64,000 bases of DNA from an uncultured Pseudomonadota bacterium (GTDB lineage: Bacteria; Oederibacteriota; Muellerivitia; Muellerivitales; Muellerivitaceae). The stretch spans positions 160,001-224,000 of the forward strand of contig CAVYRH010000008.1 in the NCBI GenBank assembly GCA_963770835.1. The letters are read 5' to 3'. The position numbers were made by a program, and so were the translations under genes. The notes under the pieces were generated by a model. It made no database searches and was not told the origin of the DNA. It saw only the letters and a list, made by a program, of their open reading frames with translations. This document shows positions 2,734 to 8,470 of this stretch, in pieces (within the stretch, counting starts at the first letter, position 1; each line of letters opens with the position of its first letter).

Positions 2734-4830
2734 TCAAGGTGAAATCACCGCCACCGCGCTGGAACCGGCGACGGCCACAAGGATCCCATTCCCGTTGGTC
2801 ACGGAGGACCAGTACTGGGAGCCGGGGAGGGTTTCATTGGTCCAAGTAACCCCGTCGGGCGAAGTCGCCGCCACCGCGCCGCCATAAATAACCGCCACAA
2901 ACAACCCATTCCCATAGGTCACCGAATCCCAGGACTGTGTGCTGGGGAGGGTTTGGGCCGTCCAAGTGATCCCGTCGGGTGAGGTTGCCGCCTTCGCCGC
3001 GCCGCCATAAGCAACCACCACAAACTCCCCATTCCCGTAAGTGACGGCGTACCAAGCCCCCGTACTGGGGAGGCTGCGGGTCGTCCAAGTGATGCCGTCC
3101 GGTGATGTCGCTGCCACCGAGTTATTGGGGGTTATCGCCACAAAAACCCCGTTCCCGTAGGCCACGGAGGTCCAGCCCGCCGAACTGGGCATGGTGCGGG
3201 ACGTCCAGGTGACACCGTCCGGCGAGGTGGCTCCCACGGGACTGCCGATTCCACTGGCGAGGGCGCCAGCCGCCACAAAAACCCCGTTCCCATAGGCCAC
3301 TGATTTCCAGTTCTGTGCGGCGGGGAGGTTATGGGCCGTCCAGGTGACGCCGTCCGGTGACGTCGCTTCCGCCGTAGTGCCACTCAAACCACTGCCGGAT
3401 GCGACCGCCACAAACTCGGAATTCCCATAGGCCACTGACTCCCAGGCCTGTGAGCTGGGGAGGGTTTGGGCCGTCCAATTAATCCCGTCGGGCGAAGTCG
3501 CCGCCACCGTGCTGGGTCCGGCGGCAACCGCCACGAAAATACCGTTCCCGTAGGCCACGGATGTCCAGTTCTGCGAGCTGGGAAGGGTTTCAGCCGTCCA
3601 AGGCATGGGTGTGGGGGTGATCGTCGGGGTGAAAGTGGGGGTGGAAGTGGAAGTCCCCGTGGGGGTGGTGGTGGCTGTGTAAGGGACGGCCGGGGTGGAA
3701 GTGGCCGTGGCGGTCGGCCCGCCCGGGGCGCCGGGGCTGAACTTGACCGGGTATTCGTAACCGCCGGTATTGGCTTCTTCCACGTAGATGTTTCCCGAGG
3801 CGTCCACCTTCACGTCCCAGGTGAAGACGTTGCCCGCCAGGTCCAGCTCGTCGCAGAAGGTGCCGTCGGTCTTGAAGACCTCGATCCGTCCGTTGGTGGC
3901 GGTATCGTCCACCACGTAAACCAGGTTGCCCGGCCCCACGGCTAGGCCCATGGGCGTGTAAAGCTGCCCCTGGCCCGACCCGCCGTTGCCCCAGCCGCCG
4001 AGGGCCTGGAGGCTGGGGCTGTAAATGGCCACCGACTGGCCCTGGCCGTCCAGCACGTAAAGGTTGTCGTTGGAATCGGTGGAAAGCGCGTTGGCGTAAG
4101 CCAGGAAGCCGTTGCTGGAAACCGAGGCCAAATCGGCGCCCGCTGTGGTCAGCTTGCGGATCAGGACATAGCTATTGCCGCCGGCCACCACGTAAAGGTT
4201 GTTCTGGGAATCGATGGTCATGCAGTAGATCTGGCGCATCGCGCCGTCCGAATTGGAACTGTCATTGAAGGCCCCGATGGAAACCCCCGAGGAATTGAAT
4301 TTTATGATTTCGGAGGTGGTGAGGGTGGCGCCGCAGCTGCCGTCATTGGTGATGTTATTGTAGGCGTAATAAAGGTTCCCGGAGCTGTCGGCGGCCATTC
4401 CTCCGCAGGCGCCGTAGTCCAGGTTGCTCACGGAGTTGCCGGAAGGATAAAATTCCCGTTGGTAGGGCCCGGACAGGCTGAATTGCTGCACCCGGTTGTC
4501 GAGGCAGGAGAGCGGGCCCTTGCCGGCATCATAGACGTAAAGATAGCCATTGGCCGGGTCGATGGCGAGGTCGTTTCCGTATCCCAAGCCCCCGGCGGCA
4601 TAAACGCCCGCCACGGTGACGGATAACCCGGCGCCGGTGGTTCCGATTTGAAAAGAGGCCGAGGGCGCCGTCAGGGGACATGCCACGCTGGTGGCCGGGC
4701 CGCCGCCGCTGTTATTGTTCCCTCCCCCGCCGGAGGGCGAGGAAGGCATGGATTTTTTGCCGGGGCAGCCGATGATTAAAAAGGTAAATCCAACCAGGAG
4801 CAAAAAAATCCCCGCGATGCGGCACTTCAT
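2734..4830 (-). CDS. Lipoprotein with an NHL-repeat propeller, PT linker and a 7-repeat Asp-box-like propeller
   Basis: Lipobox LIIGC; NHL motifs (LYTPMGLAVGPGNLVYVVD); seven repeats of WTxxxLP..WxSVAYGNGxFVAV..ATSPDGxT; start placed at ATG 4830. Confidence 0.8.
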   Translation of the reverse strand: MKCRIAGIFLLLVGFTFLIIGCPGKKSMPSSPSGGGGNNNSGGGPATSVACPLTAPSASFQIGTTGAGLSVTVAGVYAAGGLGYGNDLAIDPANGYLYVYDAGKGPLSCLDNRVQQFSLSGPYQREFYPSGNSVSNLDYGACGGMAADSSGNLYYAYNNITNDGSCGATLTTSEIIKFNSSGVSIGAFNDSSNSDGAMRQIYCMTIDSQNNLYVVAGGNSYVLIRKLTTAGADLASVSSNGFLAYANALSTDSNDNLYVLDGQGQSVAIYSPSLQALGGWGNGGSGQGQLYTPMGLAVGPGNLVYVVDDTATNGRIEVFKTDGTFCDELDLAGNVFTWDVKVDASGNIYVEEANTGGYEYPVKFSPGAPGGPTATATSTPAVPYTATTTPTGTSTSTPTFTPTITPTPMPWTAETLPSSQNWTSVAYGNGIFVAVAAGPSTVAATSPDGINWTAQTLPSSQAWESVAYGNSEFVAVASGSGLSGTTAEATSPDGVTWTAHNLPAAQNWKSVAYGNGVFVAAGALASGIGSPVGATSPDGVTWTSRTMPSSAGWTSVAYGNGVFVAITPNNSVAATSPDGITWTTRSLPSTGAWYAVTYGNGEFVVVAYGGAAKAATSPDGITWTAQTLPSTQSWDSVTYGNGLFVAVIYGGAVAATSPDGVTWTNETLPGSQYWSSVTNGNGILVAVAGSSAVAVISP

Positions 4831-5139
4831 TGTTTGGCCTTTCGGATAAACATTAAAACGTTTGGCCAAACAATCGGTTTGGGAAAATGTCTTAGCTCAT
4901 GGAGTATAGGCGTTTTTGTAAGTATTAGATACAGTTAGCATATTCAAAGCCGGGGCATCCCGGTGAAAGCCGGGAAATCATCAGCGGCTTTTGTCCAGTT
5001 ACCGCGCGCGGAAGGATTTCGGGGGGAACGAAGGGTATTGGGTTGTCCAATGCGGCTCCCCGCCGTGGACAGGTAACATGATGGCCATTCCACCGCCGGG
5101 ATTAAACTATTCCCGGTGAGTAGCCACTCATAAGGAGGA

Positions 5140-6216
5140 ATGACCATGAAACAGATTAGCAAAAAAGGATTCCAAGGCAAGGAGGTATCCAAGCGGGACG
5201 CCGTGTTTGTGGGGCTCGATGTCCACAAACGAAGTATTTACGTAGCAATCAGGATCAATGGAAAGGAAACCGGAACCAAGTCTGTGCCCGCGGATTGGGA
5301 AGCTGTGGTGAAGGTTCTGGAGCCTTACCGAAAAGGGTTAAAAAAGGTCGTCTACGAGGCAGGACCTACTGGCTTTGGCTTGGCACGTCGCCTTCGGGAA
5401 GTGGGATACCCATTGGACGTCATCGCCCCGAACAAAACACCTCGTGTAGCTCAGTTGGAAACAAAATCCGACCGGTTGGACTGCCGCAAGCTGGCGGAGT
5501 ACGCCGAAAAGGATCTCTTGCGGGCTGTGGCGATCCCAACCCTCCAGGAAGAAGCGGATCGGCAAGTGGTGCGTTTGAGAAACGCGATGGTGGAACAAAA
5601 ACGCAAGGCCAAACAAAGGATCAAAAGCTTTTTCCTCCAATATGGATTCAAGGAACCTAGAGGGCTGGATTACTGGACCCACGAGGCCATCGGAGTTTTG
5701 CGGGATATGGAACTGCCGCCGGCCCTGAGATTCACGTTGGATAGCCTATTGGAAGATCTCTTTTACTTTGATAGGCAGCTTAAAGACGTGAACATACGTT
5801 TGCGGGTCATGATGAAGGACAAGGCCTACGAGAAAAAGGCTAAGATCCTCAGGTCCCACCCGGGAGTGGGTGAAGTAACGACCCTGCAAATGTTAACGGA
5901 GATTTACCAGCCGGAGCGCTTTCAAAACGCCAAACAGGTGGCGGCTTACGTGGGGTTGGCCCCAAGGATCAGGCAAAGCGGAGAAACTCGAAAGGAAGGC
6001 CATTTGCAGAAGGCCGGAAAAGGAACCTTGAGGGCTACCTTAGTTGAAGCTGCCTGGTCATGGATTCAAAAGGATACCCAGGCCAACCGCGTTTTCCGCC
6101 GGTTCGTCCGTAATACGGGGCATGTCAACAAAGCGATTGTGGCAATGGCTCACAAGCTTTTGATTCACCTTTGGACTATGTTGGTTCGAAAGGAAGTTTA
6201 TCGGCCCATGCTCTAA
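5140..6216 (+). CDS. IS110-family DEDD transposase/recombinase
   Basis: VGLDVHK, VYEAGPTG, KSDRLD, PGVG, YVGLAP..QSG motifs; AAGGAGG RBS (alternative start 5146). Confidence 0.97.
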   Translation: MTMKQISKKGFQGKEVSKRDAVFVGLDVHKRSIYVAIRINGKETGTKSVPADWEAVVKVLEPYRKGLKKVVYEAGPTGFGLARRLREVGYPLDVIAPNKTPRVAQLETKSDRLDCRKLAEYAEKDLLRAVAIPTLQEEADRQVVRLRNAMVEQKRKAKQRIKSFFLQYGFKEPRGLDYWTHEAIGVLRDMELPPALRFTLDSLLEDLFYFDRQLKDVNIRLRVMMKDKAYEKKAKILRSHPGVGEVTTLQMLTEIYQPERFQNAKQVAAYVGLAPRIRQSGETRKEGHLQKAGKGTLRATLVEAAWSWIQKDTQANRVFRRFVRNTGHVNKAIVAMAHKLLIHLWTMLVRKEVYRPML

Positions 6217-6220
6217 AGAG

Positions 6221-6385
6221 GTTTCAGCCTCAGTTTCGTGATTCGACCCCTTAGGAATGACCACGAGTTTTAGCTGTGCCTTAGGCACGTTGGACAGGTG
6301 GTGGCTTCCCTCAGGATTATCGAATTCTTATCTTGTGCCTCGAGCACGAATAGCAGCGTGAATCCACGAAACCAAAAGGCTGACC
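6221..6385 (+). ncRNA. Predicted bridge/seek RNA of the IS
   Basis: Closing stems TCAGCCT/AGGCTGA and GTTTCGTG/CACGAAAC; two parallel GTGCC..GCAC hairpin modules carrying target-matching TGGACAG and donor-matching ATAGCAG. Confidence 0.75.
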
Positions 6386-6446
6386 GTAGGAGAAAATTGG
6401 ACTTGAGGAATGGCCTCATAGCAGGAATGGCCTCATGGTTTTAAAA

Positions 6447-6791
6447 CTATTCAAACAGGATAATCTTAAGATTTTCGATCAGCTTTGCCTTATTCAACGG
6501 ATTTAACTCGCCCAAATGCTTGACGAACCGGCGGTTATCAATGGCCCGGATTTGATCGACTAAGATGTCGGAATTTTTTTTAAGGCCCATTCCTTTTTTG
6601 GAAAGGTGAACCCGGAGGATTTCCGCCCCGCGGATGACTTGTGTGGTGATGGGGCAAACAATAGTGCTGGGGTGTTGGCCGTCATTTAAAAGGTTGGTTT
6701 GGAGGACGACGACCGGCCTTGTCTTGCCCGGCTCCGTGCCGAACCGCGGGCTTAGGTCGGCCAGGTAAACATTGAATTTCCTAATCTTCAT
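6447..6791 (-). CDS. mazF: PemK/MazF-family toxin
   Basis: ADLSPRFGTEPGKTRPVVVLQ, IVCPITT and DQIRAID motifs. Confidence 0.95.
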   Translation of the reverse strand: MKIRKFNVYLADLSPRFGTEPGKTRPVVVLQTNLLNDGQHPSTIVCPITTQVIRGAEILRVHLSKKGMGLKKNSDILVDQIRAIDNRRFVKHLGELNPLNKAKLIENLKIILFE

Positions 6792-7027
6792 TCGAGGGTT
6801 GCTTCCTCAAGCTTTTCCATCTCCCCGAGGATGTCCATGGAGTTCTTCCGCGTGAGCAGGGATTCCTTCAGCAGTTTTTTCCTGAGCCCTTTTCGGCGGT
6901 TGAAAGCGTTATAAAAATCCAACGCCTCATTGATGTAGGCATTTCGGGACATATGAAGCCGTTTGGTTAGGATTTCTACATCCTCGAAGATTTCACCTTT
7001 AATTTTTAGGGACAGGACCTTGGTCAT
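6788..7027 (-). CDS. Ribbon-helix-helix antitoxin
   Basis: SLKI..MSRNAYINEAL RHH pattern; 4-nt overlap with the toxin gene. Confidence 0.85.
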   Translation of the reverse strand: MTKVLSLKIKGEIFEDVEILTKRLHMSRNAYINEALDFYNAFNRRKGLRKKLLKESLLTRKNSMDILGEMEKLEEATLE

Positions 7028-7156
7028 TCCGGGCTCCTTTGGAGGTATATACGAATAGTATATACCTCCAATTTCAAAAGGAATAAATAGTTTTAACCTG
7101 GTTGTCCAATCCAGTCCTCGCCGTGGACCCTGCCTGCCACCCGGATAACGCTGCTT

Positions 7157-8470
7157 TTATTGGTTTGAACCGCCGAGCGGCGTGAGCTGTATCTGTTTGG
7201 CGAGTCCATAGGCGGCCGGAAGGTCGCTGTCGCCGGTTACGAGCACACGGCCGATGACGAGCACCGAATTGTTCGGCGATGATATCCGCGCCACCCCGCC
7301 CGGCACCGCGCCCTGCCAGCCCGGACCACTAATAAGATAATTTCCCGCCTGGGTGCCGGTGGCGCGCCGGCCGACGTAGGCAAAATTAGTGTTGTTCGAC
7401 GGATCAGTGAATTGCACGCTGTAGTAGCGGCCTGACATGTCCGGCACATGCAGGATTTGCGGCCCTTGACGGAGGTCCAACCAGCCGGCCGAAAGCAGCG
7501 TGTCGCGGTTTACCCCGGTCGTCGCCAATTTCGAGCTTGAGGCGGGCGGGTGGAGGGGGTCCGCGAAGAGGGCTTGGGGCTCCGTATAGATCGTATTGAT
7601 CGAAACGGGGCCGTCGCCGAACCCTTTCACAAGGATCGCTTTCTTGTATACGTTCAGAATGAGGCTTGGCCAAAAAGCGATGAGCGCGAAGGTAATGAGC
7701 CCCCATGCGATGACCGCCAATAAGGCGAATGGAACGAGATCGGTCCCCCCCCTAAAGAACCGCCTGTAGACGGCCCACGCGACGACTGCGGTTGTGACGA
7801 TCGCAATGAGATGTTGGGATATCACATCCGGTATCATCGCGCCTAAACCACCGGCGCCGCCGGGTCCTTGCGCCTTGACCACCGGCGGCACTTGGTACTT
7901 GCCCTCGAGGATGGCCGCGCCAGGCTGGTAAACGCGCAGCCAAAGCAAAAAAGGACCGGCCGGCGCGGGCAGCCAATTCGGCTCGTGGCCGGCCGGAGCC
8001 GTGTTTTGAATATAGATATCCACCGAGCCGTCGGCGTTCGGCACCAGGCCCGTTCTGTCGCTGACGCTGTAGCGGTTGAGGGGGTTCGGCACAAATTGAT
8101 TTTTCGCGTTACCCATCGTCAGCGACCAGAACGCGTTGTTGGGCGGCAGGCCGCCCGGCGGGAAGCGCAATAGGTAGCCGTTCCGGCCGTTGAGCGCGTG
8201 GCCCGCGCCATCGACTTTCGTCAGCCAATACATCGCCTCTTGCGGTACGTTGACGGGACCGGGAAAGATGAGGGAACAGGCGGCCCGCTTAAACAGGCCG
8301 TTGCCGGGCACCCCGCATCCCAATAAGGTGACCCAGCCGTTGACATTCGTGGCCATGAACCCCGCTAAGATTTGGAACGTGATCCAAGCCAACCAGGCGC
8401 CGACGAAAATTCCCTGCACGCCGTGATCGTGGACGGGCCTGTTAAGGATGTTGGTTAGGGTATTTGCCAT
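7157..8470 (-). CDS. DUF1214 + DUF1254 membrane protein
   Basis: FWSLTM..NRYS..NADGSVDIYIQ..NWLP (DUF1214) then NRDTLLSAGWLDL..PDMSGRYYSVQF (DUF1254). Confidence 0.85.
   Translation of the reverse strand: MANTLTNILNRPVHDHGVQGIFVGAWLAWITFQILAGFMATNVNGWVTLLGCGVPGNGLFKRAACSLIFPGPVNVPQEAMYWLTKVDGAGHALNGRNGYLLRFPPGGLPPNNAFWSLTMGNAKNQFVPNPLNRYSVSDRTGLVPNADGSVDIYIQNTAPAGHEPNWLPAPAGPFLLWLRVYQPGAAILEGKYQVPPVVKAQGPGGAGGLGAMIPDVISQHLIAIVTTAVVAWAVYRRFFRGGTDLVPFALLAVIAWGLITFALIAFWPSLILNVYKKAILVKGFGDGPVSINTIYTEPQALFADPLHPPASSSKLATTGVNRDTLLSAGWLDLRQGPQILHVPDMSGRYYSVQFTDPSNNTNFAYVGRRATGTQAGNYLISGPGWQGAVPGGVARISSPNNSVLVIGRVLVTGDSDLPAAYGLAKQIQLTPLGGSNQ

Follow-up and report, generated by a model that had tools for sequence, protein, structure and literature searches.

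The window analysed here is a 64,000-nt stretch of DNA from an uncultured bacterium. Near its left end an IS1111-type mobile element has inserted at the edge of a 28-bp palindrome, beside a toxin cassette. The features of the locus are listed by position.

5044–5071, no strand: 28-bp palindrome, 13-TC-13 (13-GA-13 on the other strand); TGGAC (5066-5070) in its right arm supplies the target's left half
5071–5077, plus: left terminal extension AGGTAAC, the AG core (5071-5072) followed by GTAAC, the donor-right part; these 7 nt lie beyond the inverted repeat
5078–5091, plus: left subterminal inverted repeat ATGATGGCCATTCC, one base longer than the right repeat
5078–5148, plus: predicted left-end RNA stem, in which the left inverted repeat would pair the Shine-Dalgarno sequence (5132-5138) and the start codon
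5140–6216, plus: IS110-family DEDD recombinase gene (PF01548 and PF02371 profiles, NF033542, catalytic residues intact)
6224–6392, plus: putative bridge RNA, placed in the non-coding stretch 3′ of the gene with approximate boundaries
6259–6306, plus: target-binding loop, stem CCAC 6261-6264 / GTGG 6301-6304, hairpin 6276-6288
within it, plus: target-loop guides, 5′ guide TTTTAG-CT 6268-6275 (pairs AG-CTAAAA) and 3′ guide TGGAC-AG 6291-6297, with handshake GT 6298-6299
6328–6358, plus: donor-binding loop, hairpin 6335-6347, handshake CG 6357-6358
within it, plus: donor-loop guides, 5′ guide TTATCT 6328-6333 (pairs AGGTAA with one G-U) and 3′ guide ATAGC-AG 6350-6356
6403–6424, plus: inner right end, with a -35-like TTGAGG (6403-6408), inverted repeat 6407-6419, 3-nt extension AGC, then AG
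6425–6436, plus: outer right end, a duplicate; it measures 17 bp in each of the three further full copies, and here 4 nt (AGCA) are missing before the flank
6437–6446, plus: right flank of the window copy, which with the left flank makes the empty site GTGGAC-AG-GTTTTA
6447–7030, minus: MazF/PemK toxin gene and a small upstream ORF, likely its antitoxin; the insertion struck the palindrome downstream of this cassette

The recombinase is 358 residues long from the ATG at 5140, or 356 from the ATG at 5146, which has the better Shine-Dalgarno spacing. It scores 239.8 bits against NF033542 (cut-off 140) and has D27, E73, D111, D114 and S280, all invariant in a 40-sequence alignment of relatives. 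The DEDD RuvC-like domain and the C-terminal PF02371 domain with its catalytic serine, which together define the IS110 family, are both present, and so are anatomical features of the IS1111 group. The subterminal inverted repeats, of about 11-13 bp, lie 7 nt from the left end and 3 nt from the right, as the IS1111 rule has it (PMC11187229; this and the other reports are cited on their accessible portions), and the element’s relatives have the same spacing. The 3′ non-coding region is long, about 220 nt against about 70 nt on the 5′ side. The guide complementary to the top strand (6268-6275) stands 5′ of the bottom-strand guide (6291-6297). The IS1111-type element with a 3′ bridge RNA that had originally been predicted is thus supported by family profiles, catalytic residues, ends and guide–flank covariation, its place in the IS1111 group being judged from anatomy and ends.

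The nearest relatives of the recombinase are 92% and 63% identical to it. Plasmid-borne IS110-family proteins are 22-38% identical, with 30.6% for ISHvo10 and 27.7% for IS4321. The element is a new member of the RNA-guided IS1111 type, the mechanism of which has been known since 2024, so the description ‘new programmable recombinase’ holds for a new orthologue of a published class and fails for a new class. By sequence comparison it is a recently active orthologue of a divergent branch, at most 38% identical to any plasmid-borne match. Its novelty was judged against plasmid-borne proteins and named elements, and a catalogued relative is possible.

The 3′ region is predicted, from its sequence, to encode a two-loop bridge RNA. 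TGGACAGG at 6291-6298 repeats 5066-5073 letter for letter, as ATAGCAG at 6350-6356 repeats 6418-6424, and TTATCT (6328-6333) and both hairpins (6276-6288 and 6335-6347) are where they had been placed. Guide matches and covariation support module 1 as the target loop and module 2 as the donor loop, with all four guides correctly assigned. The stem first proposed to close the target loop, ACCAC/GTGGT, is the CCAC/GTGG stem in a register shifted by 3, and we rejected it: 70% of its cells were paired, a value reached by 63 of 500 shuffles, whereas the whole 16-pair structure built on CCAC 6261-6264 / GTGG 6301-6304 had 89.7% of cells paired and was equalled by none of 500. This structure was drawn from the same 28-sequence alignment used for RNAalifold and the pair counts, which favours its pairing score; the pair counts showed two-sided changes at 13 of the 16 pairs. 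As the loop is closed by CCAC/GTGG, the GT at 6298-6299 is free to serve as a handshake guide, in the position that this guide has in IS621 (PMC11208158).

Guides, core and insertion sites in relatives

Covariation was examined in 46 loci, selected from 170 by at least 38.5% identity and 150 bits, less three duplicates. Patterns were used to parse the loci, eight of which went through another, looser round, and the rows were merged to one per element, giving 23-31 rows per test. The outermost end was used where there were two, and the right-flank tests were run without L008, which has a broken outer end, and L093, a tandem junction. The permutation tests (20,000, own against swapped pairs) ignore relatedness.

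Both target guides followed the insertion sites. The 3′ target guide matched its own flank at 3.33 of 5 positions and swapped flanks at 1.51 (n = 23). The 5′ target guide matched at 3.74 of 6 against 1.50 in a fixed register, and at 5.01 against 2.33 when a slip of one base was allowed (n = 26 for both). None of the 20,000 permutations reached the observed value in any of the three tests, so the guides covary with the sites, as they should if the original prediction was right. The donor 5′ guide agreed with the left end at 3.20 of 5 positions against 2.53 (n = 25, 0/20,000). The donor 3′ guide, ATAGC-AG, matches the right end, but cannot covary with it because both are nearly invariant. There are therefore two loops in which three guides match and covary with the DNA and the fourth matches.

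The handshake bases gave a similar result for non-cognate DNA. The target loop's first handshake base agreed with the left end's first base at a rate of 0.87 against 0.32 (n = 23, 0/20,000), a correlation limited by the two being inherited together. The first base of the donor-loop handshake agreed with the right flank at 0.63 against 0.30 (n = 31, 1/20,000), while its second base showed no significant agreement with the flank (1110/20,000). Both cross-controls, with the cognate DNA, were null. The first base of each handshake thus matches non-cognate DNA, as a handshake guide does.

The conserved core is AG, found at 26 of 29 left junctions and 23 of 31 right junctions, with AA or GG at the rest. 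The base before it was T in 11, C in 9, A in 6 and G in 3 of 29 elements, and the base after it G in 11, C in 10 and A in 10 of 31. A CAG(G) core, as proposed originally, was rejected on this variation, the neighbouring C and G not being conserved.

The insertion sites of the other copies agree with the guides. The guide TTTTAG calls for CTAAAA, the extended form of the CT(A/G)(A/G) target half first predicted, and the outer ends of the three complete copies run through AG into CTAAAA, GTAAAA or CTATAT, with 6, 5 and 4 of 6 matches; the sequence past the inner end has 1 of 6. Poor fits were seen in L016 (2/6), L019 (3/6) and G027 (3.5/6), and at the window copy’s own site, which matches the 5′ guide at 2 of 6. 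The 63%-identical elements bear different guides and different flanks, a natural retargeting among close kin. The G024 element lies at GAATT-AG-GAATT and the G002 element at TT-AG-AGG(C/T)TCT, each site matching the element’s own guides. In G002 the guide is readable for eight right ends; six of these match it at 6-8 of 8 bases, and the remaining two have flanks alike in type. In G027 the target core is AA and the donor core AG, and its guide reads T at the place of a C in this element.

Some relatives differ in other ways. Both G027 copies (L002 and L006) have unequal cores, AG at the left junction and AA at the right. L028 sits in a 32-bp tandem repeat array, and its guides match the repeat unit. 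A sub-branch (L021, L025, L026, L033 and L106) has an AA core and a much shorter 3′ region, for which target-loop parsing was unreliable.

Right ends, junctions and expression

Four exact copies of 5071-6436 lie in the genome. There are two partial ones as well, a 5′ fragment on contig C3 and, on C15, a 3′ remnant of 96% identity. The element had been taken to end at 6424, with the GAAT that follows as a mismatched target flank. None of the four full copies has its boundary there. All share a tandem 17-bp duplicate of the right end, and the three besides the window copy extend across another GAATGGCCTCATAGC-AG, with their flanks parting only after it, so GAAT is the start of the duplicate and belongs to the element. 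The flanks of other copies, put forward as a check on the boundaries, thus moved the right one and upheld the match between guide and site. Short-read contigs of runs X1 and X3, from two studies (X1 possibly being the source sample), also cross the duplicate, which argues that it is no assembly error. One of these contigs leads from it into GTAAAATG, which is a new flank; the insertion flank that the public contigs add is GTAAAA.

A contig of run X1 joins 5071 to 6437 and so gives the empty site, GTGGAC-AG-GTTTTA, which by hand count matches the guide-predicted target at 9 of 13 positions. The left junction of the window copy is precise. Its right side is short of 4 nt (AGCA), a deficit known from the assembly alone and possibly an assembly error, as no contig confirms the right junction of this copy.

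Among 38 loci with a parsed right end, duplicated right ends occur in this element (17 bp) and in L017 (54 bp), or 2 of about 31 elements. In both, the duplicate unit begins directly after an internal AG and stops at the terminal AG. L017 left a longer AGCAG microhomology unused at the duplication, and its outer flank matches its guide at 6 of 6. The C15 remnant and G027 have single right ends. These observations fit a duplicate that arose when the recombinase joined DNA at AG.

Three other accounts of the modules and ends have to be weighed. On one account the modules match by chance, or go back to an old internal duplication, and guide nothing; this might be suggested by a scan of 4800-7300 against Rfam, which matched no family at E up to 5, and by the weak folding of the isolated 3′ region relative to shuffles (z = -1.43). 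Against this the guides shift with the insertion sites across elements of 39-92% protein identity and the stems show compensatory changes; on this sequence covariation we take the chance reading to be refuted and give it practically no weight. The geometry of the original prediction, with an end at 6424, a CAG(G) core and a target right half, GAAT, that escaped the guide, had more to recommend it: 6418-6424 is a complete right end with the better junction promoter, and single-ended relatives stop at the equivalent place. Both the empty site and the sequences that flank the other copies nevertheless refute it. The four full copies are identical through 6436, three of them diverge only past the second ATAGC-AG, the empty site joins 5071 to 6437, and the C and G beside AG vary among elements; its being correct is extremely improbable. 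The origin of the duplicate is less settled. It might be a passive replication slip, or an assembly error, unconnected with the recombinase, and AG(G) microhomology does border the 17-bp unit, while the 4-nt loss is known solely from the window assembly. The assembly-error version conflicts with the short-read contigs of two studies, and a slip accords poorly with L017, where the unit also runs from AG to AG past the unused AGCAG, though two cases are too few to decide. A passive origin is a serious contender, to which we give somewhat less than even weight. Searches of the literature by title or abstract returned nothing on point for a duplicated IS1111 right end.

The choice of end bears on expression. 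A junction promoter, TTGAGG-17-TAACAT, forms as had been predicted when 6424 is joined to 5073, but is absent at the outer end, which the copies used and where the best -35 matches 3 of 6 positions. In 18 of 23 elements the reconstructed junction has a -35 that matches at 4 or more of 6 positions and lies 17-19 nt from the -10. Joined ends were seen in L093 only, where a relative is present as a tandem dimer and the right-end/AG/left-end junction is clean. Contigs of four sequencing runs contained no end-to-end circle joint; such contigs show presence, not absence. A search of sequencing runs listed no RNA data set with the element. An internal promoter scan found 1 site where 1.2 were expected by chance. 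The left-end stem is more stable than its shuffles (z = -3.88, 0/200), and of 27 homologous left ends in which a Shine-Dalgarno sequence could be parsed, 26 are predicted to pair it and the start codon with the left inverted repeat; two more had none that was parsed. It seems likely from this predicted pairing that translation of the recombinase is damped. Nothing on point for an inverted repeat hiding a Shine-Dalgarno sequence in IS1111 was found by title or abstract.

The palindrome and its arrays

The 28-bp palindrome recurs at about 60-66 loci in the genome (60 oriented), including contigs C3, C4, C11, C12, C15 and C17. The copies are co-oriented within each contig and form arrays behind AT-rich genes, a stop codon lying no more than 40 nt before 38 of the 60. 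Identical palindrome flanks recur on different contigs. Beside the window copy, the next palindrome beyond the MazF/PemK cassette lies at about 7103-7130. The MazF/PemK module is present in 11 of 30 other genomes of the family, in differing contexts and usually bounded by palindromes; a palindrome, or half of one, comes just after the toxin stop in most of 11 relatives (8, by eye). It is likely that the palindrome separates swappable gene cassettes, and the arrays look like a cassette system of a non-integron kind.

Left junctions lie at a palindrome edge in 4 of 5 cases in this genome and 2 of 2 in G027; the element copy on C26 is off-repeat, which argues against strict dependence on the palindrome. 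The genome has 91 sites that agree with the guides at 11 or more of 13 positions, and 11 of these are at a repeat edge. The sole perfect 13/13 target (C26, near 493001) is unoccupied and away from any palindrome. Because so few strong sites are at a repeat edge and the perfect one is empty, the palindrome may help targeting beyond base pairing; the comparison is rough, as the window site itself scores 9.

The palindrome was considered as an integron attC site, the target of the IS1111-attC elements, and this was rejected as its flanks have no conserved AAC/GTT boxes. No integron integrase was identified.

Other mobile functions lie near the repeats. The only resolvase-family gene of the genome (C17:12108-12548) sits between repeats in an array, and a tyrosine recombinase near one C26 repeat looks phage-like by eye. 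Y1 transposases gave 11 matches, one of them between two repeats on C12, and had no general link to the palindrome. Group II introns (18 maturase matches in the genome) begin 3 nt past the palindrome at several places, the loci being C11:107398-111632, C3:39417, C2:200663, C26:616708 and C5:306559.

Mechanism, spread and known systems

The explanation that best covers these results is an RNA-guided IS1111-type element with a two-loop RNA, an AG core, use of the outer end and steering by the palindrome, and we are highly confident of it. The recombinase would use the 3′ RNA to pair the target TGGAC-AG-CTAAAA and the joined ends ATAGC-AG-GTAAC, and the two were probably recombined at the AG core. 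Read on the minus strand by analogy with IS621, the target would be TTTTAG-CT-GTCCA and the donor GTTAC-CT-GCTAT. The RNA would then have the same order as in IS621, a left guide with its CT core, a right guide and then the handshake dinucleotide. After strand exchange, again as in IS621, the GT of the target loop would pair the donor and the C of the donor loop would pair the target, favouring insertion. The 3′ target guide, being the conserved arm of the palindrome, would steer most insertions to cassette boundaries.

An ancestor seems to have acquired the 17-bp duplicate of the right end. The outer end would now be the end in use, at the cost of the junction promoter, as mobilisation likely needs guide-matched target bases past the junction, of which the inner end has 1 of 6 and the outer end 4-6. 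This flank requirement and the role of the handshake are treated in PMC11187229, PMC11208158 and PMC13626964. As the IS621 donor loop alone supported excision in vitro (PMC13626964), the inner end may be less inert than this suggests. For its expression the gene would depend on read-through, or on inner-end circles that form rarely, and the stem that covers the ribosome-binding site at the left end would hold it down. The window copy is likely to be a donor of enzyme and RNA, yet a poor substrate owing to its damaged outer end.

In a variant of this explanation, with the same element identity, the element spreads for the most part without circles. It would do so by direct transfer of strands with a processed (seek) RNA that has the target loop only, or by one-strand copy-out, and not by four-strand recombination of a circle as in IS621. 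Such a route would account for copies having spread with so poor a junction promoter at the outer end, and for the G027 junctions, where the donor core AG on the left and the target core AA on the right in both copies are what one-strand transfer predicts. CazIS110-1 is reported to use pathways of this kind (10.1101/2025.10.25.684509), and members of IS1111 to have short seekRNAs. Set against these are a donor loop that is conserved and covaries with the left end, heteroduplex repair that could equally yield the G027 pattern, and read-through that suffices for IS621 excision (PMC13626964). The circle-free route is plausible, but on balance we doubt it.

The RNA-guided reading places the element close to the IS1111 seekRNA elements ISEc11, ISPa11, ISKpn4 and ISPst6 (PMC11187229). 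It shares with them repeats 7 and 3 nt from the ends, the long 3′ region, a top-strand-complementary guide 5′ of the bottom-strand guide, the GL-P----SG motif, a junction promoter (here predicted in relatives) and the edge of a foldable repeat as insertion site (attC for ISKpn4, REP for ISPa11, the palindrome here). It differs in its protein, whose identity to the listed named elements does not exceed 31%, in its duplicated right end, and in having as target a 28-bp palindrome without attC R boxes. The donor module is a simple two-loop form with an internal hairpin, whereas a multi-loop form is said to be common in IS1111 (PMC11208160). IS621 and ISCro4 (PMC11208160, PMC11208158, PMC13626964; PDB 8WT6, 9T56) have the same composite active-site residues (DEDD plus serine), target and donor loops, a 2-nt core (AG, or CT on the other strand) and, in IS621 (PMC11208158), a handshake dinucleotide straight after the core-binding guide. 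Their proteins are distant (profile E 1e-21 to 1e-25), and unlike them this element has its RNA 3′ of the gene, a hairpin between the guides in each loop, and long subterminal repeats.

ISPpu9 (PMC12288879) is alike in its AG crossover, insertion at palindromic (REP) repeats, alternative ends and spread without a junction promoter. It belongs to the IS110 group, with a 5′ RNA and a strong promoter of its own, and its alternative ends flank an extra RNA gene where those of this element form a 17-bp tandem. The IS1111-attC elements and group IIC-attC introns (PMC11187229, PMC3001079) are a parallel for an IS1111-type element and a group II intron at cassette boundaries, although the site here is not attC and the sole resolvase-family gene lies inside one array. 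By title or abstract, the literature held nothing on point for IS110 elements at serine-recombinase cassette sites.

A further-reaching reading would make this lineage a dedicated parasite of a non-integron cassette system, with an enzyme that duplicates its own end. By analogy with attC, the guide would spell an arm of the crossover site, and the intron would have come to use that site by convergence, marking it as an attC analogue in function. The end would have been duplicated by one-ended transfer to an internal AG, and the element would have spread without a junction promoter. As one joint proposition this is speculative, and it is more doubtful than credible.

The element is a compact orthologue in which four guides, the core and the handshake bases can be read from the sequence, and natural retargeting among close kin backs the reading, so that a reprogramming assay could start from it. 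A natural test of junction choice, and of the need for a junction promoter, is offered by the duplicated end, and the targeting of one 28-bp site by both an insertion sequence and a group II intron hints that the cassette arrays are an integron analogue. The duplicated end, the cassette-site targeting and the inverted repeat over the ribosome-binding site are extras that deserve a footnote.

A second IS1111-type element, 30% identical to the first, lies inside the group II introns. Its six copies are at C26:878898-879965, C26:617615-618682, C3:40325-41392, C20:121-1188, C2:198713-199780 and C11:94798-95865, with the ends AG-ATAAC and ATATC-AG, and its 3′ region likewise has two hairpin modules.
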